A stretch of 64,000 bases of DNA from Dehalococcoidia bacterium (GCA_034434815.1 DAOTYO010000059.1:3082-67081); one strand, 5' to 3'; shown: positions 380 to 63,699, counted from the first letter of the stretch. Translations and numbers: made by a program. Notes: a model not told the origin generated them from the sequence alone.

Positions 380-575
380 CCCAGAAGGAGCGCTTGAAGG
401 AGAGAGGGCAAAAGATATTCCTCTCCGGGGGGGTGGGGGTGTCCCTCAAGAATGGGATCGAGAAGCCCGATCGTTCATGGGGTGTGGGGGGACTGGGGGG
501 CAAGGCCCGCAGTGAGGTGATCAAGGTCATTCACCCTGAGAGTGAGGGATGCAAAATAGAATCGCTGTTTTTCAG
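380..575 (-). mobile_element. MITE copy A (opposite orientation to B-G; internal deletion removes the G4 motif)
   Basis: Ends CCCAGAAGGAGCGCTT and AATCGCTGTTTTTCAG. Internal GAGAAGCCCGATCGTTCATGGGGTGTGGG and TTCACCCTGAGAGTGA match the other copies. No clear TSD. Confidence 0.8.
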
Positions 576-693
576 GTTCATTCCGAATGCCGCAAGCGGA
601 TCGGGTTTTTTCTCTACGCCCTGCTTTTTTGAGGGATGCCAACAATGACAGGCCCCTCTTCTGCTGATACAATTTTGGTATGAGGAGGGCGAT

Positions 694-1110
694 ATGCAGA
701 AGTTCTTGGCAAGGATCATATTGCTCGGCATATTGATCTGTGCTCTCATCGGAGTGGGGTGGGGATGCGGTGGGGGCGGAGGGAGTTCAACCGCCACCAA
801 AGAAACCGGCACTCGAATTACGGAGCCGAAAGAACTGATCGAAGCGACCGATCAGATTGAAGAGGCTTTCACCCGAGGAGATCCGGAACAACTGGAAACT
901 TACATTCATCCCGATACCCTTGAACTCTATAAAACGGTCATTGAGGAGAACGCCGAAAAGCTGGCGGGATTTGCCGAGATCTTCAAGACCCGAAAGCTCC
1001 TCTGGACCGACGGCCTTCAGGCGGTATATGAGGTGACCTACGAAGGGCAGAAATTCGAGATCACCATGGTCTTGGATACGGATGGAAATTGGAAACTGGC
1101 GGATTTCTAG
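694..1110 (+). CDS. Putative lipoprotein, possibly NTF2-like small domain
   Basis: RBS GAGGAGG, hydrophobic signal ending GWG-C, Gly/Ser/Thr linker, C-terminal DGNWKL hairpin. Confidence 0.7.
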   Translation: MQKFLARIILLGILICALIGVGWGCGGGGGSSTATKETGTRITEPKELIEATDQIEEAFTRGDPEQLETYIHPDTLELYKTVIEENAEKLAGFAEIFKTRKLLWTDGLQAVYEVTYEGQKFEITMVLDTDGNWKLADF

Positions 1111-1125
1111 CCGGAGGAAGCATTG

Positions 1126-3204
1126 ATGAAAAAGTGGATCGCCCTCTTCATGGTTATCACGTTGCTGACGCCGATCTATTCCGGGGCTCTGACGCCATCC
1201 ACCGCACTGGGTTACGATAACAAAACCGCGCACCGCGAGTTCAACAGAGCCATTGTGGATAAGTTCGTCGAGAGATCGGCACGCTTGCCTGAATTTCAGA
1301 GCTATTTCTTTTCCCTCGATTCAGTGGATCTGAAAGGGCCGGTCATCACCAAATCGGGTTGGTGGGATCCGACTACCGAGGAGAAAGAGCTCACGGCGCG
1401 GGAGTGGATCATCGAGGGGGGATATACGGCGGATGAACCGGAAGTCCCCGCCGCCTATCGGCACTTCTATGATCCACTGGGCCTGAACAACGGGAAGAAA
1501 TACCTGACCGATATCAACCGAGCCCTTGCCGTGTTCAATCCCGAAGTGGATGCCATTTTCTGGCATTTTTACGGCAACGATCCGAACGGCATCAATGAGT
1601 GGACGTGGGAAAATGGCAAGAAGTACATCATCAATGCCCTTCAATCGGCGGATGAGGCCACCCGGAACGGTTACCTTGCCAGAGCCTTCCGGTGTCTGGG
1701 AGAGGTTCTCCACAACACCGCCGATATGGGATGCCCGCCGCACGTTCGGAATGATGCTCACGGGGGGTATCCGGGGTTGGGGGGATCGGATCCATATGAA
1801 TCCGGCTTCAATCCCGCATGGGGGAATAAATACGCCGGTGGAGCGTGCGATCCAAACCTGAAGTCCCTCTTCACGGGTGCAACAACCGCGATCGAAATCA
1901 ACAAGGCCATGGCCGAGTTCACCAACGAGTATTTCTTCTCTCAAGATACCATCTCGGGGACGGGGGTAGAGACCTATACCTCTCGAAACGGGATGAAGGA
2001 CTATCCCTCCCCGAAGCTCGAGAAATTGGAGTACGAAGACGACTCATTCAACTACGTCTATACCTTCCCCAGCGGACGGAAGGTCCAGCTTTGCAATGAC
2101 CAATCGGTGTTCTTGGGCTATATAACCCGGAATTTCCGGGCGGCGCCGCGGGTCACGCTCAGGAATGTCGAATCGCAGGCGACCGAGCTCGTGCCGGCGA
2201 TCGTGGAAGCGGGCGTGAATGTGATGCGCAATTTCATCCCTCGCTTTGAGATAACGGTTCGGTTCGATCCCGAGCAAAAGGAGCTGAGCGGCGAGATCAA
2301 ACATATTCCCACCGATGAGTATCCCAATACCATCAACTATAGCGGGCCGGTGAAATTCTTGGTCAACAACAGAGTATCGAAGATCGAGGCCCAAGCGTCC
2401 GGCGGTAAGTTCTCGGTCAAGGCCCCCGATCTCAAAGGGAGCGAAAAGGTCGTTGCCTACATCTCTTTTGGCGGGATCCAGATACGCTCTCCGGAAGCCG
2501 ATACCGCTATGGCGGAGATCACATTCAGCACCGAATGGAGCGAAACAACGGATCCAGAACGATTCCACGGATATACCGAATTCGATAGTCCGGATGATAA
2601 GGATGATGAGCCTGAGCATTATGAGCTGTGGTATACGGGCCCAAAGGTTGTTACCAATCTCTTCCTTTCGGGAACCATCCGCGGGCCTGCGGGGACGGGG
2701 GTGAAGACAATGGAGGAGTGGGGTAAATGTGCCGCCACCGTGTACTGTGTGAAAAACAAAGAGCTAGATGTGGAGTTGAAGCTCTCTTACTCGGTGGAGC
2801 CCTCCGAATGGGTGTGGGATGCCAAAGTGTTGGACTACGGTAGAGGCGCGCCAACCTACGATGCGCTTCAGTTCACATTCGAAGGATTCCGCTATGAACT
2901 CACGGATAATCGCCCCGAGGAGAAGAAGAAAATCGAACTCCCCGATATCGCCGTGGTCTCATTCGATAAGGCGAAACGGGAATACACCATCCGCTTCAAA
3001 TTCGATCCCAAGTTCCACTTCGAAGGGGACCCCATCACCGAAGGGCTCCATATTTACCTTTACCCGATCATTTCGTGTATCAGCGGTACAACGCAGGGGC
3101 CCTGTTCCAAACCGCAATGGGATCGGTTTAATGAGAGGGGGGATATCGTAGCCACAGCAAGTGCGCGGTACGTCGTTGACATTGATTTCTGGGAAGACTA
3201 CTAA
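1126..3204 (+). CDS. Secreted protein with Zn-dependent phospholipase C/P1-nuclease-like N-terminal domain and uncharacterised C-terminal beta domains
   Basis: RBS GGAGG, ATG 1126, signal peptide. Motifs TAH, RHFYDP, GEVLHNTADMGCPPHVRNDAH and PYE resemble PLC/P1 Zn ligands. Confidence 0.6.
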   Translation: MKKWIALFMVITLLTPIYSGALTPSTALGYDNKTAHREFNRAIVDKFVERSARLPEFQSYFFSLDSVDLKGPVITKSGWWDPTTEEKELTAREWIIEGGYTADEPEVPAAYRHFYDPLGLNNGKKYLTDINRALAVFNPEVDAIFWHFYGNDPNGINEWTWENGKKYIINALQSADEATRNGYLARAFRCLGEVLHNTADMGCPPHVRNDAHGGYPGLGGSDPYESGFNPAWGNKYAGGACDPNLKSLFTGATTAIEINKAMAEFTNEYFFSQDTISGTGVETYTSRNGMKDYPSPKLEKLEYEDDSFNYVYTFPSGRKVQLCNDQSVFLGYITRNFRAAPRVTLRNVESQATELVPAIVEAGVNVMRNFIPRFEITVRFDPEQKELSGEIKHIPTDEYPNTINYSGPVKFLVNNRVSKIEAQASGGKFSVKAPDLKGSEKVVAYISFGGIQIRSPEADTAMAEITFSTEWSETTDPERFHGYTEFDSPDDKDDEPEHYELWYTGPKVVTNLFLSGTIRGPAGTGVKTMEEWGKCAATVYCVKNKELDVELKLSYSVEPSEWVWDAKVLDYGRGAPTYDALQFTFEGFRYELTDNRPEEKKKIELPDIAVVSFDKAKREYTIRFKFDPKFHFEGDPITEGLHIYLYPIISCISGTTQGPCSKPQWDRFNERGDIVATASARYVVDIDFWEDY

Positions 3205-3295
3205 ATCAAGAAGGGGAACCGGCCGCGAGCTCATCGTGGTTCTCTAAGGAAGAGGAAGTCTACCGGAACTCGGGGTACACGTCCGGAAAACCGCC

Positions 3296-3325
3296 TTGAC
3301 GAACCCCCGTCCGTCGGGCTAGAAT
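3296..3325 (+). promoter_or_regulatory. Sigma70-type promoter of tRNA-Phe/tRNA-Gly
   Basis: TTGACG-N18-TAGAAT, 8 nt before tRNA-Phe. Confidence 0.75.
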
Positions 3326-11689: not shown

Positions 11690-11701
11690 ATCCCCGTCGT
11701 T

Positions 11702-11916
11702 CCCCAGAACAGCGATTCCGTTTTGTAGCCTTCATCTTCAAGGTGAGTGCTCATGATCATCTCATCCCGGGCCTTGCCCCGGAATTCCCCCGTACCCCAT
11801 GAACGATCCGGCTTCTTCGCTCCCACCCACCCGCCCAAAGGTTTTTTGGGGGACACCCCCCGATCCCCCCGAGAGAGGTGTCTTCTGCACGGTCTTCTTC
11901 GATCGCTCTTTTCGGG
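11702..11916 (+). mobile_element. MITE copy B
   Basis: TIRs CCCCAGAACAGCGATT / GATCGCTCTTTTCGGG; perfect 5-bp TSD TCGTT at 11697-11701 and 11917-11921. Confidence 0.88.
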
Positions 11917-12003
11917 TCGTTCCAATTGGTTGCATCTCCCTCGATAGGCCTCTATAATGAGGGAGCGGCTCAGTGTTCTGTACGGATGAAAGGAGTTTCC
12001 CCT

Positions 12004-17889: not shown

Positions 17890-18105
17890 CCCCAAAATAG
17901 CGATTCCGCTTTGTAACCCTCACCCTTAGGGTGAATGACCTTGATTACCTTATTTCGGAGCTTACCCCGGAATTCTCCCACACCCCATGAACGATCCGGC
18001 TTCTCCGATCCCACCCACCCGCCCAAATGGTTTTTGGGGGGACACCCCCAATTCCCCCCGAGAGATGTGTCTTATGCCCTCGCTTCTTCAATCGCTCCTT
18101 TTGGG
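17890..18105 (+). mobile_element. MITE copy C
   Basis: TIRs CCCCAAAATAGCGATT / AATCGCTCCTTTTGGG; full internal match including CCCACCCACCCGCCC. Confidence 0.88.
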
Positions 18106-18199
18106 TCCCCTTGTTTTCCTTGACGGAGGATTCCGCAACCGGCTATCATGAAGACACTCGCTGCTTTCCGCAGCGGAATAGGGAACCCGGACTTCTCGA

Positions 18200-25058: not shown

Positions 25059-25275
25059 GCCAAAAAGAGCGATTCCGCTTTGCAGTCTTCACCCTCGGGT
25101 GAATAACCATTAGCCCCTTATCCGGACTTTGTACCGGAATTCCTCCACCCCCCATGAACGAGCGGGCTTCTCCGATCCCACCCACCCGCCCAAAGGGTTT
25201 TCTTGGGGGGCACCCCCAATCCCCCCGGCTTAAGAGGTATCTTTTGCACTCTCTTTTTCAATTGCTCTTTTTGGG
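25059..25275 (+). mobile_element. MITE copy D
   Basis: TIRs GCCAAAAAGAGCGATT / AATTGCTCTTTTTGGG; internal TTCACCCTCGGGTGAA hairpin and G4 motif. Confidence 0.88.
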
Positions 25276-25289: not shown

Positions 25290-25318
25290 TTGACGCTCAT
25301 CCGGCAAGATGCTATATT
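25290..25318 (+). promoter_or_regulatory. Sigma70-type promoter of tRNA(CAT)
   Basis: TTGACG-N17-TATATT. Confidence 0.7.
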
Positions 25319-25335: not shown

Positions 25336-25408
25336 GGCAGCGTAGCTCAGTTGGTAGAGCAGGGGACTCATAAGCCCTTGGTCGCTAGTTCAAGTCTAGC
25401 CGCTGCCA
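25336..25408 (+). tRNA. tRNA with CAT anticodon (elongator Met more likely than Ile2); CCA not encoded
   Basis: GGCAGCG...CGCTGCC acceptor stem, loop CTCATAA, GTTCAA T loop. Not initiator (no C1:A72 mismatch). Confidence 0.9.
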
Positions 25409-25459
25409 CTTTCCTTCCTCTTTCTCCGTCCGAACTGCTCTCCTGAAGAAGCAATCCCG

Positions 25460-25606
25460 CCTAGGGAGTTTGTTTTCCCACGAGGATCACCTTGTGCTCC
25501 GTGATGTTTGCCACGGTAGCTTCGCCGGAGGTTGTGGAGTATGAAGGGATAGGGACCCGCCGCCAACCCGCTACTCGCCGGAGGAGGCTTTCCCGATCCC
25601 TCTAGG
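25460..25606. ncRNA. Candidate structured RNA or repeat between tRNA and clpP
   Basis: Hairpins CACGAGG-ATCA-CCTTGTG and CCGTG-N8-CACGG, nested TAGC/GCTA and GGTTG/CAACC, direct repeat TCGCCGGAGG x2. Confidence 0.25.
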
Positions 25607-26195
25607 GGAGCTTTTGGAGGATCTGGTCGATCACACCGTATTCGAGGGCTTGTTTGGCATCGAGCCAGTAGTTCCGATCGCAATCCCTCTCGATTATTTC
25701 GATCGATTTTCCCGTCCGCTGGCTGATGATGGAGTAAAGCCGGGAACGGACTCGAAGCATCTCCTCGGCTTCGATCTGCAGATCTGTGGCCGGGCCGGTG
25801 ATATGGCCCGAGATGAGCGGTTGATGCAGAAGCACAGTGGCGTTGGGAAGCGCATAGCGCTTGCCTTTGGTGCCGCCCATGAGTAGCACTGCCCCCATGC
25901 TCGCTGCTAGCCCCACACAGTAAGTTCGGATATCGCAACTCACGAATTGCATGATATCGTATATCGCCAGGCCCGCTGTGACCGACCCGCCGAAGGAATT
26001 GATGTAGAAGTGAATATCGGACTTGGGATCCTCGCTGTGTAGGAAGAGCATCTGGGCGATGATGGAGTTGGCGGTCTCCTCCTCGATCGCCCCTCCCAGA
26101 AAGATGATGCGATTCTTGAGGAGCCGTGAATAGATATCGTAGGCGCGTGTGCCGGCCTCGGTCGTTTCGATGACGATGGGCGTTTCAAACTGCAT
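25602..26195 (-). CDS. clpP: ATP-dependent Clp protease proteolytic subunit
   Basis: [27 protein letters not shown] (Ser), HQP (His). Confidence 0.95.
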
Positions 26196-26206: not shown

Positions 26207-26809
26207 TCATTTGGATTTGGCGGTGAGGATTTCATCGATCAGGCCCCATTCCTTTGCCTCTTCAGCGCTCATATAACGATCGCGTTCCGTTTCTTTCTGA
26301 ATCTTCTCGAGGCTCTGCCCCGTGTGTTTGGCCACGATCTCGTTGAGCATTTGCTTGGTCTTGATGATCTCTTCGGCCTGAATCTTGATATCCGCCGCTT
26401 GCCCGCCCAAGCCGCCGGTGGGCTGATGCAACATGATCTTGGCATGCGGCAGAGCATAGCGTTTGCCTTTGGTGCCGGCACACAGAATGATGGCGGCAAG
26501 GCTGGCCGTCATGCCCACGCAGATGGTGGATACCTCGCACCGGATGAATTGCATCGTATCATAGATGGCCATGCCGGCATGGACGTATCCACCGGGGCTG
26601 TGGATATAGAGGTGGATGTCCTTATCCGGGTCTTCCCGCTCGAGATAGAGGAGTTGCGCCACGATCAAGTTGGCGATTTGATCGTCGATCGGCGTGCCGA
26701 TGAAGATGATCCGTTCCTTGAGAAGGAGCGAGAATATGTCGAAAGCCCGTTCCCCCCGTGCCCCGCTTTCGATCACCATGGGAATGATATTTTGTGGCCG
26801 AAGGTCCAT
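26207..26809 (-). CDS. clpP: ATP-dependent Clp protease proteolytic subunit (second paralog)
   Basis: [26 protein letters not shown] (Ser), [13 protein letters not shown]. Confidence 0.95.
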
Positions 26810-28213: not shown

Positions 28214-28283
28214 CGAAAACCTCCTCAGAGTAGCCTATCTATTATAACAGTGAACCTCAGAGGGTTAAAGTCCACATGTGTGG

Positions 28284-28495
28284 GCCCAAAGCGCGATTCA
28301 GTTTTGCATCCTTCACCCTCGGGTGAAAAACCATTAACGACTCATCCGGACTTTGTACCGGAATTCCCCCATCCCCCATGAACGATCCGGCTTCTCCGAT
28401 CCCCCCATCCGCCCAAAGGATTTTTGGGGGATATCCCCCAAATCCCCCCGAGAGAGGTATCTTGGGCACGCTCTTCTTCAATCGCTCTTTTTGGG
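28284..28495 (+). mobile_element. MITE copy E
   Basis: Ends GCCCAAAGCGCGATT / AATCGCTCTTTTTGGG; near-TSD TGTGG / TATGG. Confidence 0.85.
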
Positions 28496-28527
28496 TATGG
28501 TTGCTCGACGTCGATCCCGGCGTGCCG

Positions 28528-33848: not shown

Positions 33849-33887
33849 GCTATCACGAGGGGCGGTTTAAGTCAAGCGTTGCGTTCG

Positions 33888-34098
33888 GCCCAAATGGGGG
33901 GCAATTGGAAAGAGGAGTGCAGAGGGGCATTCCCCTTTGGCCGGGGTTTGGGGTGACCCTAAAAAGAACCTTTGGTCGGGTTGGGTGGGATCGCCGATGC
34001 CGGATTTTCTGAGGGGAAGGGAAAGGGGATTGCGGGTCAAGTCCCGCCCGGGATGAGGGTAATAATTTGCTCCTCATGAGGGTGACGCTGTTTTTGGC
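33888..34098 (-). mobile_element. MITE copy H (divergent subfamily)
   Basis: Ends CCCAAATGGGGGGCAATTG / GACGCTGTTTTTGGC; perfect 5-bp TSD TTCGG at 33883-33887 and 34099-34103; colinear with the reverse complement of copy D. Confidence 0.8.
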
Positions 34099-34103
34099 TT
34101 CGG

Positions 34104-34144
34104 CCCGAAAGGAGCAATTGGGGGTAAGGGATTGCCGGGACCCG
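34104..34144 (+). repeat. MITE-type end plus 25-bp direct repeat (left of island)
   Basis: CCCGAAAGGAGCAATT (TIR-like) followed by GGGGGTAAGGGATTGCCGGGACCCG. Confidence 0.7.
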
Positions 34145-34194
34145 CTCAATTTATGTCGAAAGGACTTCTTAATGTGTTTGCTTGAGATAATTTA

Positions 34195-34215
34195 ATTATT
34201 CTGTTTTAGAATAAT
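34195..34215. promoter_or_regulatory. Perfect 8-5-8 inverted repeat (operator candidate)
   Basis: ATTATTCT-GTTTT-AGAATAAT in an AT-rich tract upstream of the promoter. Confidence 0.45.
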
Positions 34216-34246
34216 GATATTGTTATGCGGATTATTGAGATCTATA

Positions 34247-34275
34247 TTGACAAAACCGATTCAAGGAAATACGAT
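34247..34275 (+). promoter_or_regulatory. Sigma70-type promoter of island genes
   Basis: TTGACA-N17-TACGAT. Confidence 0.65.
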
Positions 34276-34444
34276 GAAGGAGTAATAATGGGTCATTTGA
34301 GAAGGAGGGTGTAGGGATTCTTCCCTGCCGGGGTTCAGAGTGTCTCCGAGTATAAACATCCCCAAGGTGTGGGGTTCCCGAAAGCCCGCGGAAAACGCTG
34401 CCATTTCGATATAACCAAATTCGAATTGAAAGGAGAATCAGAAC

Positions 34445-35110
34445 TTGAAAAAACTATCCATGCTCTACCGAAGAAGGCGGGTGCCTTTTCTCATCTGCTC
34501 GGGATTGATGCTTGCTGCTGTGATCGCGGGAATAACTACGGCGGCCATCGCTTTTGGGACTGAACCAACTCCCAAAGTGAATCTTTCCCCCAGTTGTACT
34601 CCCGAGACAAATTCTGAGAGAATCAGGGAATACGAACGGATCATGGCGGATTTCCAAGAGAAAACCACCGGAATGACCGACGAACAGAAACGTGCGGCGA
34701 TAGATGAACTGGACAGAGTGTTGGAAGAAAAGGGATTCATCAAGAAGTTCAGCCTGAAGGGCATGGAAACCCGGGGATCCCAGATCCTCATAGCTGGCCA
34801 AGTAGTCAAACTCCCTGCTGACGCCGAACTCAATGGTATGATTTCTTCTATAAATCCCGTCATAACCGATGGGCAAATATCGAGCGAAGCGAAATCCATT
34901 GTTCCGAGCCTGCCGGTACTGTGGATAACCCGAGGGAACTCGTACGTATGGATTGGGCTGGATTCCGGCGTGATCGTTTCGGGAATGATCTCTGCCGGCG
35001 AAGAGGGGGCCTTTGATTTTCTGAAGGAGTATTTCCCGGCTCAAGCCAGAGCTATTGATGCCCTGCCCATTCGAGATCCCGAAACACTCAAGCTCGAGGT
35101 GACGGAGTGA
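34445..35110 (+). CDS. Hypothetical membrane-anchored protein
   Basis: RBS AAAGGAG, TTG start, basic then hydrophobic N-terminus; GTGA coupling to the next gene. Confidence 0.7.
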   Translation: MKKLSMLYRRRRVPFLICSGLMLAAVIAGITTAAIAFGTEPTPKVNLSPSCTPETNSERIREYERIMADFQEKTTGMTDEQKRAAIDELDRVLEEKGFIKKFSLKGMETRGSQILIAGQVVKLPADAELNGMISSINPVITDGQISSEAKSIVPSLPVLWITRGNSYVWIGLDSGVIVSGMISAGEEGAFDFLKEYFPAQARAIDALPIRDPETLKLEVTE

Positions 35111-36132
35111 AACGGTCAATCTGGATTACGGTCATTGCAGCTATTCTGTTTGCTGAAATCCTGTCAACGGCGGTATACGCATTCGACTATGAGACTCAAC
35201 GAGATGGCGCAACCACACAGAGAAGCTATGTTTTCTGATACTGGGCTGTTTCAAATACCTCAATGTTCTGGAATACTCCCAACAACCCTCCGCCGGCCTT
35301 TGTGGCGGGAGTGCAACAGGCCATCCAGTCTTGGACAAGCACAGTGCCAAAGTTGACGTGGAGCCAGTCCACCGCTGCCCCAGATGTCACCTTTTAGATT
35401 GCAACGTTGCCTCCCGGTACCCCTGGAGCTATGGCATTCGACACGTGGGTTTGGGACTCTGTTCGGCAGGCCTATTATTGGACAAAGGCAACGGTCTATG
35501 TTGCAACTGGAGTGCACTTCACTACAGCCGGCCTAAAAGCTGACCTCTGCCACGAGATTGGTCACCTCTATGGCATCGATGATCAATACACCGTGGGCGG
35601 GTGCGCAAGCAGCCCCAATTCCATAATGCAGGGAGCACATCTTGATGGCCAAGGCAGAGTTGATTGCCAAACCTATTGCCCCCCACCAAACTATACCCCC
35701 ATCTGTATTTATGCTCCAACCAGTTGGGATACAGGAAGAGTCAATACCTACTGGGGCCAAGGAGAGGCCAAGAACTTAAGCGCCGTACCCAACGGCTCCC
35801 AAGTCATCATCACGTGGGACGACTACAGTTGGGCCGAGAACGCCTATCAGCTCTATTTCTACAAGTGGAATGGCTCATCATGGCAATATCTCACGATGGT
35901 TGCCGTGTCTAGTAACACTGGCTCTCACGATACCGTGATCAACAGAACGATCTCCTATGTCTGGACGGGATCTGGGCCCGGTAACTATTATGTTGTGGTG
36001 AAACCGTATTTCATAAAATACGGTCAATACGGAACTTCCCAAGTCAAGACGTTCACTTTGTCGCAAAAACAGCGATGGGGGTGGGGGGTAAGGGATTGCC
36101 GGGACCCGAGCGGCTTTTTCGACTTCCCGTGA
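35107..36132 (+). pseudogene. Secreted matrixin-like zinc metalloprotease with FN3-like tail, two in-frame stops
   Basis: One frame from GTG 35107: signal peptide MKRSIWITV...AVYA, TGA 35236-35238, TAG 35395-35397, HEIGHLYGID motif. Confidence 0.75.
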
Positions 36133-36212: not shown

Positions 36213-37127
36213 TCATATCCCTTGGCGATTCTGCCGCTCTTTGCTTCTGGGGTGTGCCTCCAGATACCGCCGGCGCATTTGCCCCTTGGTCACATGGGTG
36301 TAAACTTGCGTGCTGGAAAGATTGGCGTGCCCCAGAAGCTCTTGCACGACCCTGAGATCGGCGCCGCCGTCGAGCATGTGCGTAGCGAAGGTATGCCGCA
36401 GGGTGTGGGGATGGACCCGTTCGCTGAGGCCAACTTGCTGGGCGTATGCCTTGAGGAGGTACTGGATCCGCCGCTCGGCGATCCGCTCGCCGTATCGGTT
36501 CAGGAAAAGGGCCTTCGTCTTTCGGTTGCCTAGGAGCTTGGGTCTTCCGGTCTTCAAATATGCTTCCAACGCTGCGGCCGCGGGGGTGCCCATGAGAACC
36601 ATCCGCTCTTTTGATCCCTTTCCTCGGACCCGGATCTGCCGCGTGGCCACGTCCACTTGATTGGTGTCGAGGGAAACGATCTCGCTGAGCCTCAGTCCGG
36701 AGGCATAGAGCAACTCGAGCAAAGCGCGATCGCGAAGGCCGTAGGGGGTGGAGATATCCGGGGCTTCGATCAACGTGCGGATTTCATTTGCGGTCAGGAA
36801 ATCCGGAAGGCGTCTTTCACGTTTGGGACCGGATATTTTGCTCAGGGGGTCATCATGAATCAAGCCTTCATTGTTGAGAAACCGGAAGAAGGAGCGCAGG
36901 GCGCTCAGTTTGCGGGCCACGCTGGCCCGCACGATTCCGGAGTCCAGAAGCTCCCCCAAGTATTGGCGGACGTGCGTCGCTGAGACCTCTTCCAGTGATG
37001 GAACGCCGGTTCTCCGAAGGAAATCAAGAAAGCCGAGGACATCGGTGGAATAGTTTCTCACCGTGTAAGGGGAGAGATTGCGTTCCGTGCCCAGATGAAG
37101 GGTAAACTTCTCGAGAAACGCTTCCAT
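36213..37127 (-). CDS. xerC: Tyrosine recombinase XerC/D
   Basis: R(D)RALLELLYASGLR, GKGSKER, HPHTLRHTFATH, LLGH...TQVYT; dprA-topA-xerC synteny. Confidence 0.9.
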   Translation of the reverse strand: MEAFLEKFTLHLGTERNLSPYTVRNYSTDVLGFLDFLRRTGVPSLEEVSATHVRQYLGELLDSGIVRASVARKLSALRSFFRFLNNEGLIHDDPLSKISGPKRERRLPDFLTANEIRTLIEAPDISTPYGLRDRALLELLYASGLRLSEIVSLDTNQVDVATRQIRVRGKGSKERMVLMGTPAAAALEAYLKTGRPKLLGNRKTKALFLNRYGERIAERRIQYLLKAYAQQVGLSERVHPHTLRHTFATHMLDGGADLRVVQELLGHANLSSTQVYTHVTKGQMRRRYLEAHPRSKERQNRQGI

Positions 37128-37200
37128 GACGTTTCGCGCCCTCAAAGCAACGCTGCGATGCCGCTACATGATTCCCTTGCTGTGGGTATGGGCCCTCCGG

Positions 37201-42485: not shown

Positions 42486-42578
42486 CGGAGAGGTGTTCCA
42501 TCTCAGATTGTACAGGCGGGGGGGCATCGAGGAACTCGATGCCCCCCCGCCCTTCTTCATTGTGAGCTGAAAGCTTGC

Positions 42579-44171
42579 TTACTTATCGAGAATCTCCAGC
42601 GCTTCCTCGCGGTAGCAGTCCATCAGATACGGGATGCCCGTCACCTTCGCGCACTCCTCGGTAAGCGACATGAGGTCCCGGCGGGAGATCGCCGGCACGC
42701 TGAAGCACCGTGCCCCGGCCATGAGTTGTTGCAGGCCTACCTTGATCTTCTGCGAGTAGCTGTAGATGCCGATGGCCCCCAGCGGGATATTCTTGATTTC
42801 GCTGGCGCCCACAAGGTTCTTGACCTCTTCGTAACACACGAAGATCTCTTCGACCGTTGACCCGAACTGACTGACCGTGTTGGGGAGCTTCCCATCCTTG
42901 AGCCACTGCGCGATGTTCTTGCCCACCATGCCGGGGATCATGAGGGCTCGTCCCATGCACACGGCTTTGGTGAAGGGGGACCCGAGGGCAAGGGCCTTGA
43001 ATACGCCGTCTTCGCTCGAGAAGCCTCCGGCAAAGGCGATATCGGGCGGACGCTGGCCCTTATCCGCTAGACGCTTGCAAAATTCGTATGCCGCCGAATG
43101 CAGATACAGACTCGGGATGCCCCACTCCTCCATCATCCGCCATGGACTCATGCCCGTGCCGCCGGAGGCCCCATCGATGGTGAGAAGATCGATCTTGGCG
43201 TTGGAACCCCATTTGATGGCCATGGCCAGTTCGCGCAGGCTGTATGCCCCGGTCTTGAGGGTGATACGCTTGAAGCCGATCTTGCGCAGCCGCTCGACTT
43301 CCTTGTAAAAACCTTCCTCATCAATGAATCCGAGCCGGCTGTGCCGCTCGAATTCCTTGATGGCCCCATCCTTGAAAGCCGCTTGATTGATGGGATTGGA
43401 GGGATCGGGAGTAACGATGTAGCCACGCCGCTGGAGTTCGAGGGCGCGGTCGAGGCTGTTCACCTTGATTTCCCCGCCGATGCATTTAGCTCCTTGACCC
43501 CACTTCAGTTCGATGGTGGTCAGGCCGTGCTTCTTATGAACGTATTCGGCCACCCCCAGCCGGGTATCTTCCACATTCATTTGGACGAGCATCTCGCCCC
43601 AGCCTTGATAGTATCGCCGGTACTGCTCGATCCGCCGGTCCATATCCGGCGAAAGGGCGATCTTACCCTTCGAATCCAATTGAAGGCCGGGATCGACGCC
43701 GCACACATTTTCCCCGCATACAATGGTCACGCCGCTGATGGCCGCGCCCACAGCGAAGTGTTCCCAGTTCTTGCGGGCGATTTCGGTGGAGCCCAGGGCA
43801 CCGGTGAAGATGGGCACTTTCATCTTCACCTTGATATCCCAACCGTAATCCGTCTCGGTGTTGACCAAGGGGAAAGTCGCCGTATCGGGATTGCCCTTGA
43901 CACCTTTGGGAAGGCCCTTTGCCCCCAAGGCGTACCCCTGAATATTGAGATGCGAATAGTCTATGGGATAGTCCTTATCGCATCCGGCGGTGATTTCACC
44001 GAAGGGGCCCGGGTAGAGGAGCTCCCGGCCGCGAAAAGTCGCTTTGAACACTTCGCAGTTGCCGGTACACCCGTCCAAACACCGCGAGCAGAGGCCGCTG
44101 GACGGTACCACGCTCCTCGATCGATTGGCGGTTCGGGTGGCTTCGTTAGCGTTGGGGGACCTGAGATTCAC
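42579..44171 (-). CDS. Stand-alone FMN-binding glutamate synthase family protein
   Basis: GTG start with RBS AGGAG; CSRCLDGC..C, IELKWGQGAK.IGGE, TIDGASGGTGMSP, AGG, MGRA. Confidence 0.85.
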   Translation of the reverse strand: MNLRSPNANEATRTANRSRSVVPSSGLCSRCLDGCTGNCEVFKATFRGRELLYPGPFGEITAGCDKDYPIDYSHLNIQGYALGAKGLPKGVKGNPDTATFPLVNTETDYGWDIKVKMKVPIFTGALGSTEIARKNWEHFAVGAAISGVTIVCGENVCGVDPGLQLDSKGKIALSPDMDRRIEQYRRYYQGWGEMLVQMNVEDTRLGVAEYVHKKHGLTTIELKWGQGAKCIGGEIKVNSLDRALELQRRGYIVTPDPSNPINQAAFKDGAIKEFERHSRLGFIDEEGFYKEVERLRKIGFKRITLKTGAYSLRELAMAIKWGSNAKIDLLTIDGASGGTGMSPWRMMEEWGIPSLYLHSAAYEFCKRLADKGQRPPDIAFAGGFSSEDGVFKALALGSPFTKAVCMGRALMIPGMVGKNIAQWLKDGKLPNTVSQFGSTVEEIFVCYEEVKNLVGASEIKNIPLGAIGIYSYSQKIKVGLQQLMAGARCFSVPAISRRDLMSLTEECAKVTGIPYLMDCYREEALEILDK

Positions 44172-45204
44172 GTTCGCACTTCTCCTTTCGATGTTTTTTG
44201 AATTCACTATCCAATGCCTCGAATTCGACGAGGTCTTGGTAGTCCATAAGAGTGGCCATGGCCCGGTTTTCCGCCTCGATCCCCTCCTCCTCCGCTGCGG
44301 CCACGGGGTTCATTCCACCGATCAAAACCATGCCGATCTTGTTCGGATGGACGGGGACCTCACACACGGGGGCGCTTGTGGAACCCATGATCAGAACATT
44401 CCCCAATCCCGCCTCGCGCAGTTGGGAAATCACATCTTCCGCCAGTTTGCGGCATGCGGCGGGAATTTCGCGGAAGTTGGCCAGAATCTTTCCGTTCCCT
44501 TGTCTTGCGGCATGCAAGACGGTGGTCATCTTCCCCCGGATGAACACTTCCGAAGGGTCGAGGGAAGAGCCGGCATAATGGATGAGCTCCACGAACCGCG
44601 ACGGGCGCCCGTGCTGTAATTGCAAGATACCGCCAAAACGGGAATCCATGGGAATGCCGGCCTTGAGAAGAACGCCATTGGTTACCACACTGCAGACCGT
44701 CGCTAGACCGATCTTTCCTTCCGGGACCCGAATCAAGCCCAGTGATTCTCCCTCCGCGCGGATCGCTATCCGGCTCCCGGCGCAAAGCCCCGCCTTGAAT
44801 ACGGGAGCCATGACCGTGAGGGCCTTCCGGAATTTATCCGCGGCGAAGAAGGAAACGTTCACCGGTATCAGACCTTTGCGGGTCTTGGGATCGAAGGTGG
44901 TCTGGAACCCCAGAATCTCGATCCGGGATATGGCAAATCCCACCTTATCTTGAACGAGGGCGCTTTCCGCTTCTTCGAGGCCTTGCTCGGTGATCCGCCT
45001 CCCATCCCGCCCCGCCAGAGTGGTGAGCCCCCGCTCATCCATGAGTTTGAGATGGTACCGTACCGCCCGCTCGGTAAGGTCGATGCCGTGCTCTCTCAGA
45101 TGCCGTGCGATCACCCGTGCGCCAAGGGGCTCGCGGCTCTCCCTCAGAATCCTCAGGATGGTGAGGACTTTTCTCTCGACCTCTTGGGTTTCTGTTCCGA
45201 TCAT
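44146..45204 (-). CDS. nrpR: NrpR-family regulator (wHTH + NRD/DUF128), paralog a
   Basis: TERAVRYHLKLMDERG, GR.IT..G, ATVCSVVTNG, SSLDPSEVFI, IGGMNP. Confidence 0.88.
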   Translation of the reverse strand: MIGTETQEVERKVLTILRILRESREPLGARVIARHLREHGIDLTERAVRYHLKLMDERGLTTLAGRDGRRITEQGLEEAESALVQDKVGFAISRIEILGFQTTFDPKTRKGLIPVNVSFFAADKFRKALTVMAPVFKAGLCAGSRIAIRAEGESLGLIRVPEGKIGLATVCSVVTNGVLLKAGIPMDSRFGGILQLQHGRPSRFVELIHYAGSSLDPSEVFIRGKMTTVLHAARQGNGKILANFREIPAACRKLAEDVISQLREAGLGNVLIMGSTSAPVCEVPVHPNKIGMVLIGGMNPVAAAEEEGIEAENRAMATLMDYQDLVEFEALDSEFKKHRKEKCERESQVPQR

Positions 45205-45454: not shown

Positions 45455-46462
45455 ATGAGCGGAAAAGTACGGAAAAAGGCTCTGGCAATATTGAATGTCC
45501 TTCGATCTGCCGAAGGCCCTCTTCCCAGCGGGGAGATCGCCCGTGCCCTGCTTTCGCTCGGGCTCGAGGTCAGCGAGCGCACGGTTCGCTTCTATCTCCA
45601 ACAGATGGATCAGGAAGGTCTCACGGAGACGATCGGAAAACGCGGCCACAGGATCACTTCTCTGGGACTTAAGGAGATAGATAGCTCCGGCACCATTCAA
45701 CGGGTAGGGCTTCTTTCGGCAAAAATCGATCGGATGACTTATGCGATGGGCTTCGATCTCACCACGAAGTCGGGCACGGTGGTAGTGAATCTCACCTTGG
45801 TTGAGCCGAGGGCGCTTGCGGAACGAGCGGAGATGATCTGCAAGGTGTATTCGGAGGGATACGCGATGGGGCGTCTCCTTTCGCTTCTGGGCCCCGGCGA
45901 GCGGCTCGGCGACCTCGCCGTTCCGGAAGGCATGGTGGGGATCGCCACCGTGTGTTCCGTGACGCTCAATGGCGTGCTACTCAAACGGGGTATCCCCACC
46001 AACTCCCGCTTCGGCGGGCTTCTCGAGCTTCGGCAGAGGCTTCCCACGAGGTTTGTGGAGATCATCATGTATGAAGGGACGAGCATCGATCCGCTTGAGG
46101 TGTTCATCCGGAGCGGTATGACGGATTATCTGGGGGCGATCCGTTCGGGCGATGGGCGGATCGGGGCCAGCTTTCGGGAGTTTCCCGCGGAGAGCCGGGG
46201 CGTTGTGGAGGATCTGGCTCAGAGGCTCGAGCGGGTAGGGTTGGGGGGATTCATGGCGATCGGGAGGCCGAGTCAACCGCTTTTGGAGATCCCGGTGAGC
46301 GAGGGGAGAGTCGGGGCGATCGTCATCGGCGGCTTGAACCCCGTCGCCATCTTTGAAGAGACGGGGCTTCGGGTTCAATCGCGGGTCATGGCGGGGATCA
46401 TGGATTTCAATCGTCTGTTCGGGTATGAGGAGCTTCCCTCCCGGATCCGCTCCCTCATGTGA
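45455..46462 (+). CDS. nrpR: NrpR-family regulator, paralog b
   Basis: SERTVRFYL, ATVCSVTLNG, TSIDPLEVFI, IGGLNP. Confidence 0.88.
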   Translation: MSGKVRKKALAILNVLRSAEGPLPSGEIARALLSLGLEVSERTVRFYLQQMDQEGLTETIGKRGHRITSLGLKEIDSSGTIQRVGLLSAKIDRMTYAMGFDLTTKSGTVVVNLTLVEPRALAERAEMICKVYSEGYAMGRLLSLLGPGERLGDLAVPEGMVGIATVCSVTLNGVLLKRGIPTNSRFGGLLELRQRLPTRFVEIIMYEGTSIDPLEVFIRSGMTDYLGAIRSGDGRIGASFREFPAESRGVVEDLAQRLERVGLGGFMAIGRPSQPLLEIPVSEGRVGAIVIGGLNPVAIFEETGLRVQSRVMAGIMDFNRLFGYEELPSRIRSLM

Positions 46463-46466: not shown

Positions 46467-47471
46467 TTAGCGGTGAAGGATATCCGGGAAAGGGATCAGC
46501 GCTTCATAAGGGAGGAGGGTGCTCATGGCCCGGTTCTCAGCGGAGATCCCCCCTTCTTCGGCCGCCGCCACGGGATTCATCCCCCCGATGAGGATCATCC
46601 CGATCTTGTTGGGTTGCACGGGGATCTCGCAGACCGGAGTGCTTGTGTTTCCCATGAGGAGGAGTTCCCCCAACCCCGCCGATTTGAGCCCGGCCACCAC
46701 CTCCTCGACCACAGGCCGGCATACCGCAGGGACCTCCCGGAAATTGGCGAGTATCTTCCCGCTGCCTTGGCGGGCCGCTTGGGCTACCGAGGTCATCTTG
46801 CCGCGGATGAAGACTTCAGAGGGATCGAGGGAGGAGCCCGCATAGTGAATGAGCTCCACAAAACGCAGGGGTTGCCGATTGCGGATCTGAAGGATGCCGC
46901 CGAAGCGGGAATCCATCGGCACCCCCGCTTTGAGAAGCGTCCCGTTGATGACGATGCTGCATACCGTCGCCAGACCGACCTTTCCTTCGGGAACCAAAAG
47001 CTCGCCGAGTTTTTCACCCGATCGAGCGATGGCCACCCGGTCGCCGGCGCATATCCCCGCCTTGAAAACCGGCGCCATCAGATTGAGGGCCTTGGCTAGT
47101 TTCTCCTCAGGGAAAAACGACACGTTCACCGGCACCATGCCGGTACGGGTCTTCCAATTGAAGTCCGTCCGGAAAGCCAGAAGCTCGATCTTGGTGATGG
47201 CCAATCCCACCTTATCCTGAACCAGGGCACTGCTGAGCTCATCCAGACCGGCGGACGTGATCACCCGGCCGTCTCGCCCCACGAGTTGCGTGAGGCCTCT
47301 TTCATCCATGAGTTTGAGGTGATAGCGGACGGCCCTTTCCGTCAGATCAACGCCATGAACCTTGAGCTCTCGGGCGATCACCCGGGCCCCCAGCGGTTGA
47401 CGCGATTCACTCAGGATGCGAAGGATGGCGATGCTCTTGCGTTCCACCTCTCGGGTCTCACTGCCGATCAT
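46467..47471 (-). CDS. nrpR: NrpR-family regulator, paralog c (closely similar to a)
   Basis: Same motifs as paralog a with long identical stretches; RBS AAGGAG 8 nt before ATG 47471. Confidence 0.88.
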   Translation of the reverse strand: MIGSETREVERKSIAILRILSESRQPLGARVIARELKVHGVDLTERAVRYHLKLMDERGLTQLVGRDGRVITSAGLDELSSALVQDKVGLAITKIELLAFRTDFNWKTRTGMVPVNVSFFPEEKLAKALNLMAPVFKAGICAGDRVAIARSGEKLGELLVPEGKVGLATVCSIVINGTLLKAGVPMDSRFGGILQIRNRQPLRFVELIHYAGSSLDPSEVFIRGKMTSVAQAARQGSGKILANFREVPAVCRPVVEEVVAGLKSAGLGELLLMGNTSTPVCEIPVQPNKIGMILIGGMNPVAAAEEGGISAENRAMSTLLPYEALIPFPDILHR

Positions 47472-47643
47472 GCTCACGTCTCCTTGTGCCGATATTCGGA
47501 ATGAGGGGTTCTATAGGTAAATCATGAAACAGGGATGAGTGTCATGTCAAGCTTTCGGAGGCCTTTAGGGGGAAGAAGCGTAGGAAATGTGCGTGGAAAA
47601 GGGGGAATCCGGTCCGGATTCCCCCTTTTTCGGAAACCCAGCG

Positions 47644-48987
47644 TCAGAGGATGGGAAGATACCGCTTGATCTCGTAGTCGGTCACATAGGTGCGGTACCG
47701 ATCCCATTCGATTTTCTTGTTCTCGATGAATTTCTGGAACACGTGCTCGCCGAGCGCTTTACGCACCAGTGGGCTGTTTTCGGCAAGGGTGATGGCCTCT
47801 TGGAGGCTCCCGGGCAGGGTGCCGATCCCCCGGCGCTTGCGCTCTTCATCGCTCATCTCATAGACGTTCTCTTCGACCGGCTCGGGCACTTCGTACTTAT
47901 TGACGATCCCTTCGAGCCCCGCCGCCAACATGACGCTGAAGGCAAGGTATGGGTTGCACGCCGGATCGGGAGAGCGGAACTCGATCCGGGTGGCCTTCTC
48001 CCGGCCGGGTTTGTACTCCGGTACCCGAATGAGATCCGAGCGGTTGCGCCGTGCCCACGAGAGATACACCGGCGCCTCATACCCGGGAACCAGCCGTTTG
48101 TATGAATTGACCCACTGGTTGCACACGGCGGTGATCTCCGGCGCATGTCTGAGGAGCCCGGCGATGAAGTGTTTGGCGATCGCCGAGAGATGATACTTAT
48201 CGTTCGGATCGAAGAAGGCGTTCTGATTGCCCTTGAAAAGGGATTGGTGGCAATGCATGCCGCTTCCGTTGATCCCGAAGATCGGCTTGGGCATGAAGGT
48301 GGCGTACACGCCGTGCCGCAGGGCCACTTGCTTCACCACCAGCCGATAGGTCATCACATTATCGGCCATGGTGAGGGCATCCGTATAGCGCATGTCTATC
48401 TCGTGCTGACTCTGGGCCACCTCGTGATGGGAATACTCGATCCCGATGCCCATCTCCTCGAGGGCCAGCACCGTGTCCCGGCGGTAGTCGGTGGCGGCAT
48501 CGAGGGGGATCAGATCGAAGTATCCGCCTTGGTCCAAGGCTTCGGTGGAGTTCGAATCCTTGAAATAGAAGTACTCAAGCTCCGGTCCGACGTAATAGGT
48601 GTATCCCATCTCGGCGGCGCGCTGGAGGTTCTTCTTGAGGACGTGTCGGGGATCCCCTTCGAACGGTTCACCGGTGGGCTTGTAGATATCGCAGAACATC
48701 CGCGCCACGGCCCGGTGTTCCTTGGGGCGCCACGGGATGAGGCAGAAGGTATCCGGATCCGGCAGGGCGATCATATCGCTCTCGTCGATCCGGGCGAAAC
48801 CTTCGATCGAAGACCCGTCGAATCCCATCCCCTCCTCCAGAGCACCCTCCAGTTCCTCTACCGTGATGGCGAAACTCTTGAGGAACCCCAAAATATCGGT
48901 GAACCATAGACGAATGAATTTGACGTCATGCTCCTTGGCCTTCTTGAGCACATAAGCCTTGCTTTCCTCTCGGTTCTTCGGTCCCAT
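47644..48987 (-). CDS. glnA: Glutamine synthetase type I
   Basis: FDGSSIEGF, GPELEY, HHEVA..QHEI, FMPKP, NGSGMH, YKRLVPGYEAP, IEFRSPD. Confidence 0.97.
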   Translation of the reverse strand: MGPKNREESKAYVLKKAKEHDVKFIRLWFTDILGFLKSFAITVEELEGALEEGMGFDGSSIEGFARIDESDMIALPDPDTFCLIPWRPKEHRAVARMFCDIYKPTGEPFEGDPRHVLKKNLQRAAEMGYTYYVGPELEYFYFKDSNSTEALDQGGYFDLIPLDAATDYRRDTVLALEEMGIGIEYSHHEVAQSQHEIDMRYTDALTMADNVMTYRLVVKQVALRHGVYATFMPKPIFGINGSGMHCHQSLFKGNQNAFFDPNDKYHLSAIAKHFIAGLLRHAPEITAVCNQWVNSYKRLVPGYEAPVYLSWARRNRSDLIRVPEYKPGREKATRIEFRSPDPACNPYLAFSVMLAAGLEGIVNKYEVPEPVEENVYEMSDEERKRRGIGTLPGSLQEAITLAENSPLVRKALGEHVFQKFIENKKIEWDRYRTYVTDYEIKRYLPIL

Positions 48988-49127
48988 AGCGATCTCCTTT
49001 CGAATTGATTGAGTGGAGGCAATTACCGTTCAAAGCCGCTTTTCATTCCCTCATATTGTATCACCTATGCCCGCGCCTGTCTTTCAATCCATGGTAGCGG
49101 GGGAATATTTCGGGAAGATTACGTTTC

Positions 49128-50689
<1,562 letters not shown>

Positions 50690-59310: not shown

Positions 59311-59519
59311 GCCAAGAAGAGCGATTCAGCTTTGCGGTCTTCACCCTCGGGTGACTGACCATGTGATCACCTCATTCCGGACTTTGTCCCGGAATTCCCC
59401 CACCCCATGAACGATCGGCCTTCTCCGATCCCACCCACCCGCCCTAAGGGGCTTCTTGGGGACACCCCCAATCCCCCGAGAGAGGTATCTTGTGGACTCT
59501 CTTCTTCAATGGGCGTGGG
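59311..59519 (+). mobile_element. MITE copy F (right TIR degenerate)
   Basis: Left end GCCAAGAAGAGCGATT; colinear internal match including the hairpin and G4 motif. Confidence 0.83.
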
Positions 59520-60735: not shown

Positions 60736-60787
60736 TTCGGATGCTTGTCCCTTTCGCGGCCCACACGTTTCTTTGAGGGTAGGAGAG

Positions 60788-62365: not shown

Positions 62366-62407
62366 CACAAACACGTGATGGGCTGCCGTCCCGCCCGATG
62401 GGCAAAG

Positions 62408-62433
62408 AAAGGGCACCCGCGCGGGTGCCCTTT
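62408..62433. terminator. Probably bidirectional intrinsic terminator
   Basis: Perfect inverted repeat AAAGGGCACCCG-CG-CGGGTGCCCTTT between convergent genes. Confidence 0.75.
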
Positions 62434-62475
62434 CTCATTCCTCCGAGGTGCTCAGACCTTATGACAAGCCCGCCC

Positions 62476-63297
62476 CTAGGGCGCCTGATAGGCCACTAGT
62501 TCGAAGGTCTGCTCGCCTACGTATGTGACGCCGTCCACATACTTCACGGGGGTGAGGAACTGGCCATCCACGGACCACCATTCGGTGCTGGTCTTCTCAC
62601 CGGAGGTATGGACGACCTTGTAGCAACTGAATGTGCCCGCAGGCACCGTCACATCTTCGATCCCCACCACTTCGGCAGTGAACGCGTAGTCGAGATGGAC
62701 CCCTTGCTCGGGAGCATCCACGGGAGCAGTGTAGGTCCATTGCTTTCCTACCGTGAAGGGTGCTCCCGCCTCACCCGAGTAAGTGTAGCTTCGCGAGGCC
62801 GCGATGGTCATGTTCACGCTTTTGACGGTGAGGGTGAAATCTTCCTTCACCATGCTCTGATTGGTCTTGTTGCGGGTGACGGTCTGGCCCTCGACATCCA
62901 CCGGGAATGACATCCCCATCGGGGGGAAATAGAAATTGACCTTGGCCGCTCCCTCGATGGCGGCGGTGGCGATGTATGTATCTCCCTCGCCCTCGGTCAG
63001 GGTGAAGGTCCATCGCGTCGTGGCGGGTTCGAGCTTCGGGTCGTTCCCGTAGGTGACGTCATAGATCCATCCCGGGGCGGAGAGCTGGGGCAGTTCCGGG
63101 GTGGGGCTGGGTTCGGGGGTGGGAGACGGTTCGAGGGTGGGGGTAGGGGTGGTGGTCTCCGCGGTTGCGGTGGGTTTGGGCGTTGGGGTCGGCGTTTTCT
63201 CTTCGTCTTTATCGCCGCCACAGGCGATCAGCACGGTTCCTATGGCCAGCACGATCATCATACCGATGACCATCGATTTACTCAGGATTCTGCTCAC
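62476..63297 (-). CDS. Lipoprotein with Pro/Thr-rich linker and beta-rich domain
   Basis: RBS GGAGG, GTG 63297, lipobox LIA-C, (PT)n linker, VTVPAGTFSC motif. Confidence 0.75.
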   Translation of the reverse strand: MSRILSKSMVIGMMIVLAIGTVLIACGGDKDEEKTPTPTPKPTATAETTTPTPTLEPSPTPEPSPTPELPQLSAPGWIYDVTYGNDPKLEPATTRWTFTLTEGEGDTYIATAAIEGAAKVNFYFPPMGMSFPVDVEGQTVTRNKTNQSMVKEDFTLTVKSVNMTIAASRSYTYSGEAGAPFTVGKQWTYTAPVDAPEQGVHLDYAFTAEVVGIEDVTVPAGTFSCYKVVHTSGEKTSTEWWSVDGQFLTPVKYVDGVTYVGEQTFELVAYQAP

Positions 63298-63484
63298 AAT
63301 AAACCTCCGTGTTGAAAAAATGGCTTGATGGGTTACTGCACCGCTTACTCGACCGGCGGGCCTCTCTGAGACGTGTGGATCATCGGTCCCCCCTACCGGA
63401 AGTCGCTTTCTCAAGGGCCGGGAAACTCGGCGTTTTGCGGCATTTTACCACAAGTTAATGCCGATTGCCTATAGGGAAGAATGA

Positions 63485-63699
63485 CCCAAAGGGAGCGATT
63501 CCACTTTGAAGCCTTCACTCTCGGGTGAATGAGCTTGATCACCTCGCTGCGGACCTTGTCCCCGAATTCCCCCACACCCCATGAACGATCCGGCTTTTCC
63601 GATCCCACCCACCCGCCCAAAGGGTTTTCTTGGGGGACACCCCCAATCCCCCGGCTTAGGAGGCGTCTTGGCCTTCTCTTCTTCGATCGCTCTTTTGGG
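63485..63699 (+). mobile_element. MITE copy G
   Basis: TIRs CCCAAAGGGAGCGATT / GATCGCTCTTTTGGG; perfect TSD AATGA at 63480-63484 and 63700-63704. Confidence 0.9.

Follow-up and report, generated by a model that had tools for sequence, protein, structure and literature searches.

Few bacterial transposons are known to direct their insertion to promoters; the behaviour has been recorded in one superfamily, chiefly in Firmicutes, and how it works is unproven. Elements of the TnGBS/ISLre2 type (p-MULT 3, Mutator superfamily) insert 15-17 bp upstream of the -35 boxes of sigmaA promoters, in one orientation (PMC3942029; Guerillot 2014; Brochet 2009), and 13 elements of the ISKra4 group, whose inverted repeats (IRs) are 83-100% complementary, insert likewise in both orientations (PMC3942029). 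In prokaryotic Mutator-like elements generally, the IRs measure 18-39 bp and end in a conserved 3'-terminal cytosine, and the repeats generated are of 8-9 bp (PMC3942029). Here, we describe a family of MITEs (miniature inverted-repeat transposable elements) found in 64,000 nucleotides of a Dehalococcoidia bacterium (GCA_034434815.1, DAOTYO010000059.1:3082-67081; this whole stretch is called the window), most copies of which lie at a fixed distance upstream of predicted promoters. The behaviour itself is known; the vehicle (a high-copy MITE) and the phylum are new, and the end chemistry is different.

Like TnGBS/ISLre2, the MITE is placed upstream of sigma70/sigmaA promoters at a short and constant distance, with the promoter-proximal cut 7-8 bp from the -35 (16 minus the 9-bp repeat there, 13 minus 5 here), in what is presumed to be a safe haven that spares genes. 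TnGBS/ISLre2 elements are, however, autonomous, 1.1-52 kb long and distributed in Firmicutes, Fusobacteria and Synergistetes, whereas the MITE is 215 bp, non-coding and resident in Chloroflexota, with 5-bp repeats, 5'-CCC...GGG-3' ends, a distance of 12-15 bp and both orientations in use. Set against the traits of Mutator-like elements, the spacing upstream of the -35 is shared (mode 13 vs. the published 15-17), while the repeats are of 5 bp, occasionally 6-7, instead of 8 or 9 bp, and the IRs are of ~16 bp with a 3'-terminal G instead of 18-39 bp with a 3'-terminal C. The ISKra4 group (p-MULT 4: ISKra2/4/5/6, ISCasp2/3, ISLfe1/2, and others) resembles the MITE in having the promoter on either side, which PMC3942029 ascribes to the near-perfect complementarity of the IRs, a trait also shared, and Chloroflexi are among the phyla with p-MULT 4 elements (PMC3942029); it differs in its 9-bp repeats and in encoding its own transposase. 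Its 5'-GGG...CCC-3' ends, as listed for ISAcas3 and ISAcce1, have the opposite polarity to those of the MITE. Classical bacterial MITEs (Correia/NEMIS in Neisseria, RUP, ERIC, Nezha, Chunjie; PMC3184786) are equally small, non-coding, multi-copy and intergenic, with terminal inverted repeats (TIRs) and target-site duplications (TSDs), but what they target is a short motif, for instance TA. In the literature we found no report of a bacterial MITE at a fixed distance upstream of a -35, nor of MITEs in Dehalococcoidia. Beyond bacteria, Ty3 of yeast and TRE of Dictyostelium also integrate at a fixed distance from the transcription start via the initiation machinery, an analogy drawn by Guerillot et al. 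(PMC3942029), although both are eukaryotic retroelements at RNA polymerase III genes.

A profile was built from six of the window copies and searched against the 64-kb window. Additional copies were retrieved by a 23-base pattern search, which delivered 46 stretches in four JGI metagenomes. Window proteins are 100% identical on metagenome contigs (the 257-kb contig of ENA ERZ27247228; JGI 3300009503; Logan runs), and the stretches were considered to represent one population, since their overlaps are 99.8-100% identical. Together, window and stretches contain 87 profile matches, of which 67 are full length with flanks and correspond to 54 distinct insertions; transposition statistics are based on these 54 distinct full-length copies and promoter-offset statistics on 55 copies. 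The same-genome sequence scanned amounts to ~475 kb, i.e., to a part of the genome. TSD counts were controlled by pairing the flanks of different copies (flank-swapped), with a leeway of ±1 nt at the element ends. A promoter match was defined as TTGACA-(16-18)-TATAAT at ≥ 9/12 with the -35 at an offset of 12-15 from the element end, and seven other offset windows served as controls. The closest relatives of the window's HisRS are 82% and 79% identical, proteins from metagenome-assembled genomes of Dehalococcoidia/Chloroflexota reach at most 70%, and the host is therefore an uncultured Chloroflexota bacterium, probably of the class Dehalococcoidia.

The sequence-only reading had proposed eight ~210-bp repeat copies in the window, making up an abundant and old family of non-autonomous MITEs defined by TIRs and TSDs, and the larger sample bears this out. 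The profile recovered all eight copies and no other significant match in the window, six on the plus strand (11703-11916, 17891-18105, 25060-25275, 28288-28495, 59312-59515, and 63486-63699; E 1e-67 to 7e-62) and two on the minus strand (380-572, E 6e-39; 33891-34086, E 2e-15). Three details need correction: the copies are not all colinear, as those at 380-575 and 33889-34098 are inverted; the copy given as 59311-59519 has lost its 3' inverted repeat, with homology that stops near 59515; and the copy at 33889-34098 is degenerate. The ~16-bp TIR consensus, CCCAAAAAGAGCGATT...AATCGCTCTTTTTGGG, was recovered in the alignments of 8 and of 54 copies, where the TIR helices are paired at 78-84%, and the perfect 5-bp TSDs TCGTT, TTCGG, and AATGA stand at the places described for them. 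Across the sample, a perfect 5-bp TSD flanks 21 of the 54 copies (1.15 expected; binomial P about 2e-21) and one of at least 4/5 flanks 40 (7.4 expected). Copy length ranges from 184 to 220 bp (~215 bp being typical), 64 kb hold 8 copies, and more copies were present in every same-genome stretch fetched. Pairs of copies are on average 76% identical and no distinct copy has a nearest neighbour above 90%, in line with the proposed age. There is no coding conservation, as indels shift every reading frame in the copy alignments. That all window copies are intergenic and that the window is devoid of a transposase was likewise upheld, with no transposase Pfam match among its predicted genes (Pfam scan, or gene calls of the matching contig). 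The repeat is thus a genuine, old MITE family and a transposon relic.

What the sequence-only reading missed is the main feature of the family, namely that its insertions lie at a fixed distance upstream of promoters. A -35 is found 12-15 nt (mode 13) outside an element end in 38 of the 55 copies at a match of ≥ 9/12, and in 46 of 55 at ≥ 8/12, compared with 0-3 of 55 copies at ≥ 9/12 in the seven control windows (Fisher P 5e-36). The exact pentamer TTGAC, read outward from either end, occurs 21 times at offsets 12-14 vs. 0.34 expected (P about 1e-30) and is nearly absent from other offsets. Regardless of the -35, 43/55 copies have a TAnnnT that begins 35-38 nt from an end, vs. 0-5/55 in the control windows. 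Among 21 copies lacking a good -35 on either side, TAnnnT is encountered 18 times at offsets 34-40 (1.7 expected). An alignment of the flanks anchored at the -35 shows an informative element end, followed by 13 positions of 0.01-0.2 bits, beyond which TTGACa and TAtaAT emerge and an extended -10 TG is hinted at.

Many insertion sequences (ISs) and MITEs have outward promoters or -35 boxes in their ends (discussed in PMC3281130), so the hexamers could be imagined as part of the mobile unit. The TSD, however, separates the inverted repeat from the -35, each locus has its own 13 bases in this gap and its own sequence past the hexamers, and the promoter is mostly on one side, which may be either (14 copies have it solely at the left end, 16 solely at the right, and 3 at both). 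Because the 13-nt gap is locus-unique, uninformative and includes the TSD, the hexamers belong to the host DNA, and an element carrying its own outward-facing promoter has practically no chance of being the right explanation.

The motifs also behave as promoters would with respect to the genes beyond them. Of 37 flanks on the promoter side that have a gene within range, 31 continue into a co-directional open reading frame (ORF), usually 46-125 nt on (typically ~70), and two of the six exceptions are tRNA genes (tRNA-Met in the window, tRNA-Val in stretch L117), which brings the total to 33/37; low-scoring flanks have a co-directional gene in 27/55. Of 45 copies that could be classified, 17 are in divergent and three in convergent intergenic regions. 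These figures bear on the model implicit in the sequence-only reading, a MITE of the usual sort that prefers nothing more specific than intergenic or AT-rich DNA and whose genic copies were removed by purifying selection. While all copies are indeed intergenic and the family is old enough for selection to have acted, selection against genic copies cannot produce a ±1-bp spacing in 70-80% of copies vs. 0-5% at control offsets, and convergent regions, usually the safe places, are the ones sparsely occupied (3/45 vs. 17 divergent). We regard this model as very improbable.

In the window itself, the spacing rule is kept by 8/8 copies, and a general promoter scan blind to the repeat independently called three of these sites. 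The copies and the predicted promoters next to them are as follows:

380..575, minus strand: copy 1, inverted, lacking ~20 nt internally; TSD not recognisable.
-35 TTGCCG at 366-361 and -10 TATACT at 342-337, minus strand: predicted promoter outside the 3' end of copy 1, leading into gatB (start ~299).
11702..11916, plus strand: copy 2; TSD TCGTT at 11697-11701 and 11917-11921.
-35 TTGCAT at 11930-11935, 17-nt spacer and -10 TATAAT at 11953-11958, plus strand: predicted promoter past the 3' end of copy 2, leading into an enoyl-CoA hydratase gene.
17890..18105, plus strand: copy 3; TSD TTCCT/TCCCC matching at 2/5 as placed, or at 4/5 (TCCTC/TCCCC) with the left boundary moved 1 nt into the element.
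-35 TTGACG at 18120-18125 and -10 TATCAT at 18144-18149, plus strand: predicted promoter past the 3' end of copy 3, leading into a HAD hydrolase gene at 18200.
17875-17846, minus strand: second, weaker predicted promoter (8/12) on the opposite side of copy 3.
25059..25275, plus strand: copy 4, a profile match.
-35 TTGACG at 25290-25295 and -10 TATATT at 25313-25318, plus strand: predicted promoter past the 3' end of copy 4, leading into tRNA-Met (25336-25409).
28284..28495, plus strand: copy 5; TSD at 4/5 (TGTGG at 28279-28283, TATGG at 28496-28500).
-35 TTAACC at 28268-28263 and -10 TATAAT at 28246-28241 with an upstream TG, minus strand: predicted promoter outside the 5' end of copy 5, leading into the trigger factor gene (tig, 28213-26882).
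33889..34098, minus strand: copy 6, inverted and degenerate, with ~17 nt missing near its 5' end; TSD TTCGG at 33884-33888 and 34099-34103.
-35 TTGACT at 33875-33870 and -10 TAGCAT at 33852-33847, minus strand: predicted promoter outside the 3' end of copy 6, leading into cbiM (33834-33148).
59311..59515, plus strand: copy 7, without its 3' inverted repeat.
-35 TTTACA at 59297-59292 and -10 TATGCT at 59273-59268, minus strand: predicted promoter outside the 5' end of copy 7, leading into hisS (59238-57982).
63485..63699, plus strand: copy 8; TSD AATGA at 63480-63484 and 63700-63704.
-35 TAGGCA at 63471-63466 and -10 TAAAAT at 63447-63442, minus strand: predicted promoter outside the 5' end of copy 8, leading into a DUF3108-like gene (63297-62476).

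The explanation that we hold with good confidence is that the copies are fossils of a MITE moved by a trans-acting DDE transposase, which integrated them at a fixed spacing upstream of sigma70-type promoters. A DDE-type transposase encoded elsewhere, and possibly lost by now, would bind the 16-bp TIRs of the ~215-bp element and make a 5-bp staggered cut, its centre ~10-11 bp upstream of the -35. In this way, the element end would come to lie 13 ± 1 bp upstream of the -35 and ~37 bp upstream of the -10, with the duplicated 5 bp between about -48 and -44 relative to the transcription start and the insertion at about -49. Either end may face the promoter, because the two inverted repeats are nearly identical. 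The transposase was most likely guided by the whole promoter, either through contact with the promoter-bound RNA polymerase holoenzyme or through a distortion of the DNA that the polymerase causes; a polymerase-guided model has been proposed for TnGBS by analogy with Ty3 (PMC3942029).

Sequence-specific and palindromic targets are common among transposases, and TTGAC is the strongest single signal in the flanks, both of which would suit a transposase that reads TTGACA, or the -35 together with the -10, directly and without contact with RNA polymerase. Yet copies with a poor -35 (TGCACC, TACACA, TAGGCA) keep their distance to a good -10, and half-sites co-occur no more than by chance (3 observed, about 6 expected), so that the guide is more likely the whole promoter than TTGACA. 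Recognition of TTGAC alone would moreover predict many hits in non-essential coding DNA, and none were seen. Direct reading is therefore, in our judgement, unlikely.

Selection by the host after the event must also be weighed, i.e., a loose insertion near promoters followed by retention of those copies whose element end or G-quadruplex motif (described below) aids transcription at an exact position. In its favour, a T5 tract is situated ~16-20 bp upstream of the -35, in the UP-element zone (T-run at about -56 to -52), conservation is somewhat higher in the G-quadruplex motif than elsewhere in the element, and the copies have persisted for long. This is at odds with the ±1 bp precision, with the experimental precedent of TnGBS (PMC3942029), and with the finding that either end, hence either strand of the G-quadruplex motif, faces the promoter. 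Another observation comes from a copy fetched afterwards in 9.3 kb of sequence that adjoin the window on its left (L149 1366-1581, minus strand), which is followed by 13 nt, TTGTCT, 17 nt, TAGAAT and then the next gene, and whose flanking 5-mers match at 4/5. A decayed copy (L149 1233-1357, plus strand) lies 6 nt beyond its far end, the pair being located 8 kb left of the window start. Such a stacked pair, with the older copy distal, fits two successive hits on one promoter and therefore favours a choice made at integration over later selection. Host selection as the origin of the spacing consequently appears improbable to us.

Several points weigh against polymerase-guided integration by a trans-acting transposase. 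About 15-30% of the copies have no convincing promoter at the expected place, and the promoters are predicted ones, being consensus matches in an uncultured organism. The TSD length is slightly ambiguous (5 bp, sometimes 6-7, and 10 in three cases). No transposase with the same TIRs was found in the window, in the ~475 kb of genome sequence, in PLSDB, in IMG/VR or by a peptide-profile search of 5.8 billion proteins, and no empty orthologous sites were present among the loci collected. The nearest relatives (HisRS 79-82% identical) have different upstream neighbours at hisS, the one locus compared. Post-insertion selection is conceivable as a contributor, as is direct reading of the promoter DNA by the transposase.

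The ambiguity in TSD length arises because the element ends are C and G runs: in some copies the apparent TSDs attain 6-7 bp, and in three 10 bp, when they run into these terminal runs. Direct repeats of 8-10 bp were noted at L110:6963-7175, L112:4061-4267, L102:2757-2971 and, in the window, at 11695-11703 / 11916-11923 (GGGCTATCCC, GGGTGTACCC, GGTCATGGGC, GTCGTTCC). Repeats of this length extending into the terminal runs are commoner than the controls allow, and could reflect either a slight preference for G...C targets or a stagger that varies. TSDs of 8-9 bp as in Mutator-like elements were considered and ruled out, since most copies have strictly 5 bp and the longer repeats are those that extend into the C/G runs. 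Reconstructed empty sites show a weak excess of G beside the cut and otherwise no local consensus except for TTG 9 nt past the TSD. In the nearest relatives the element is absent from 27 kb, which is not syntenic at the hisS site.

The search for a partner transposase was carried out at several levels. In all sequence collected, TIR matches outside the known copies were limited to two, the first within a dapA-like gene and the second within a copy that has an internal deletion, and no other repeated DNA of ≥ 350 bp was detected. Blastn against PLSDB returned nothing, and a pattern scan of IMG/VR gave seven chance matches, all in coding DNA. A string search of a portion of the p-MULT supplementary tables yielded no IR like CCCAAAAAGAGCGATT in that portion. 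Elements of the IS1380 family have ends that begin with 5'-CC. The MITE shares with them these ends, an IR of ~16 bp and a 5-bp repeat, features that are not unique to IS1380; for IS1247, a member of the family, an IR of 16/13 and a direct repeat of 5 are given (PMC3281130). A difference is that no transposase of this type was found in the ~475 kb, and no description of promoter targeting as an IS1380 property was found in the literature. By this analogy, an IS1380-type partner, as guessed in the sequence-only reading, would be compatible with the ends and the stagger, which fit but are not diagnostic.

Could the repeat instead be a structured non-coding RNA or a regulatory palindrome resembling repetitive extragenic palindromic (REP) sequences? 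The consensus folds strongly (-77 kcal/mol, z = -4.9), which is due to the inverted repeats and three short internal palindromes. The RNAalifold consensus, on the other hand, amounts to only -3.3 kcal/mol, pairing and covariation are no better than in shuffles (87.4% vs. 87.3% paired), there is no orientation bias in tandem gene contexts (11 sense, 14 antisense), and TSDs are present. A match to a known Rfam RNA would have spoken against an inserted element; at gathering score the window gives only four tRNAs, and within one copy the E-value mode produced sub-threshold chance matches (the best with 20.2 bits against a threshold of 45), so no Rfam family covers the repeat. This alternative was rejected on the RNAalifold result, the shuffle-level covariation and the lack of an Rfam family, and we deem it extremely improbable.

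With respect to coding capacity, a conserved ATG (CCCCATGAACGATCC; consensus ~97-215, e.g., window 17987 onward) opens the frame MNDPASPIPPTRPKG..., which remains open to the 3' end in most copies, with indels that shift it after ~17 codons. A peptide profile starting from this ATG recovered, among 5.8 billion proteins, only two MITE-derived ORFs of 72-74 aa (P0121, P0122), and because of this the ATG is not demonstrably a transposase start. Gene callers do annotate ORFs within MITE copies, such as one of 84 aa over copy 1 (window 394-648, plus strand), and short-read contigs stop inside copies (ends of L003 and L152). The family therefore fragments assemblies and its called ORFs pollute protein sets, a practical nuisance.

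Five of the window copies carry a G-quadruplex-type motif on the bottom strand of the element:

11822-11836, 18010-18024, 25177-25191, 59430-59444, and 63604-63618, minus strand: G-quadruplex-type motif GGGCGGGTGGGTGGG.

These five sites are the only short-loop G-quadruplex motifs of the window. The motif, with three 1-nt loops, occurs in 33/54 copies; the part of it that lies outside the search pattern is conserved at 90% vs. 83-85% elsewhere in the element, and changes favour the loop positions.

The recurrence of the same targeting with other ends and another stagger in a distant phylum suggests either that the habit has a greater age and a broader distribution than assumed so far, or that it arose repeatedly. 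With every copy pinpointing a predicted promoter to the base pair, the family offers a free, testable promoter annotation for an unculturable organism, which, at the level of consensus matches, shows sigma70-type TTGACA-17-TATAAT promoters to be used here. A bolder version of the polymerase-guided reading would have a non-Mutator transposase lineage, with a 5-bp stagger and 5'-CC ends, evolve such integration independently of TnGBS/ISLre2/ISKra4, and the element spread to perhaps a quarter of the transcription units at about -49, leaving a fossil promoter map whose copies maybe act as upstream modules through the T-tract (UP-element position) and the strong G-quadruplex motif ~100 bp upstream. 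We put this forward only tentatively, as a possibility with the balance somewhat against it.

Copy 6 adjoins the left unit of a perfect 25-bp direct repeat (GGGGGTAAGGGATTGCCGGGACCCG, 34120-34144 and 36084-36108) that brackets the stretch 34145-36083, and a XerC/D-like tyrosine recombinase gene (36213-37145), the only recombinase of the window, follows next to topA and dprA. The bracketed stretch is 1.9 kb long, has ~50% G+C vs. 59% in the genome and contains two ORFs (34445-35110 and 35407-36132) without Pfam match; it may be a small integrated island. The low-GC region at 34.1-36.2 kb was also considered as a home of the transposase and dismissed, as it gave no Pfam matches.

Among the other features of the window are three genes for NrpR-type nitrogen repressors (44146-45204, 45455-46462, and 46467-47477), two of which are 70% identical at the DNA level, near glnA, a P-II gene and amt (47644-50689). 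NrpR is best known from methanogens. Two adjacent clpP paralogues (25602-26195 and 26207-26809) are located downstream of tig. Perfect or near-perfect palindromes of 30-37 bp are present at gene ends (47597-47629, 62406-62435, and 42515-42551) and are probably terminators.

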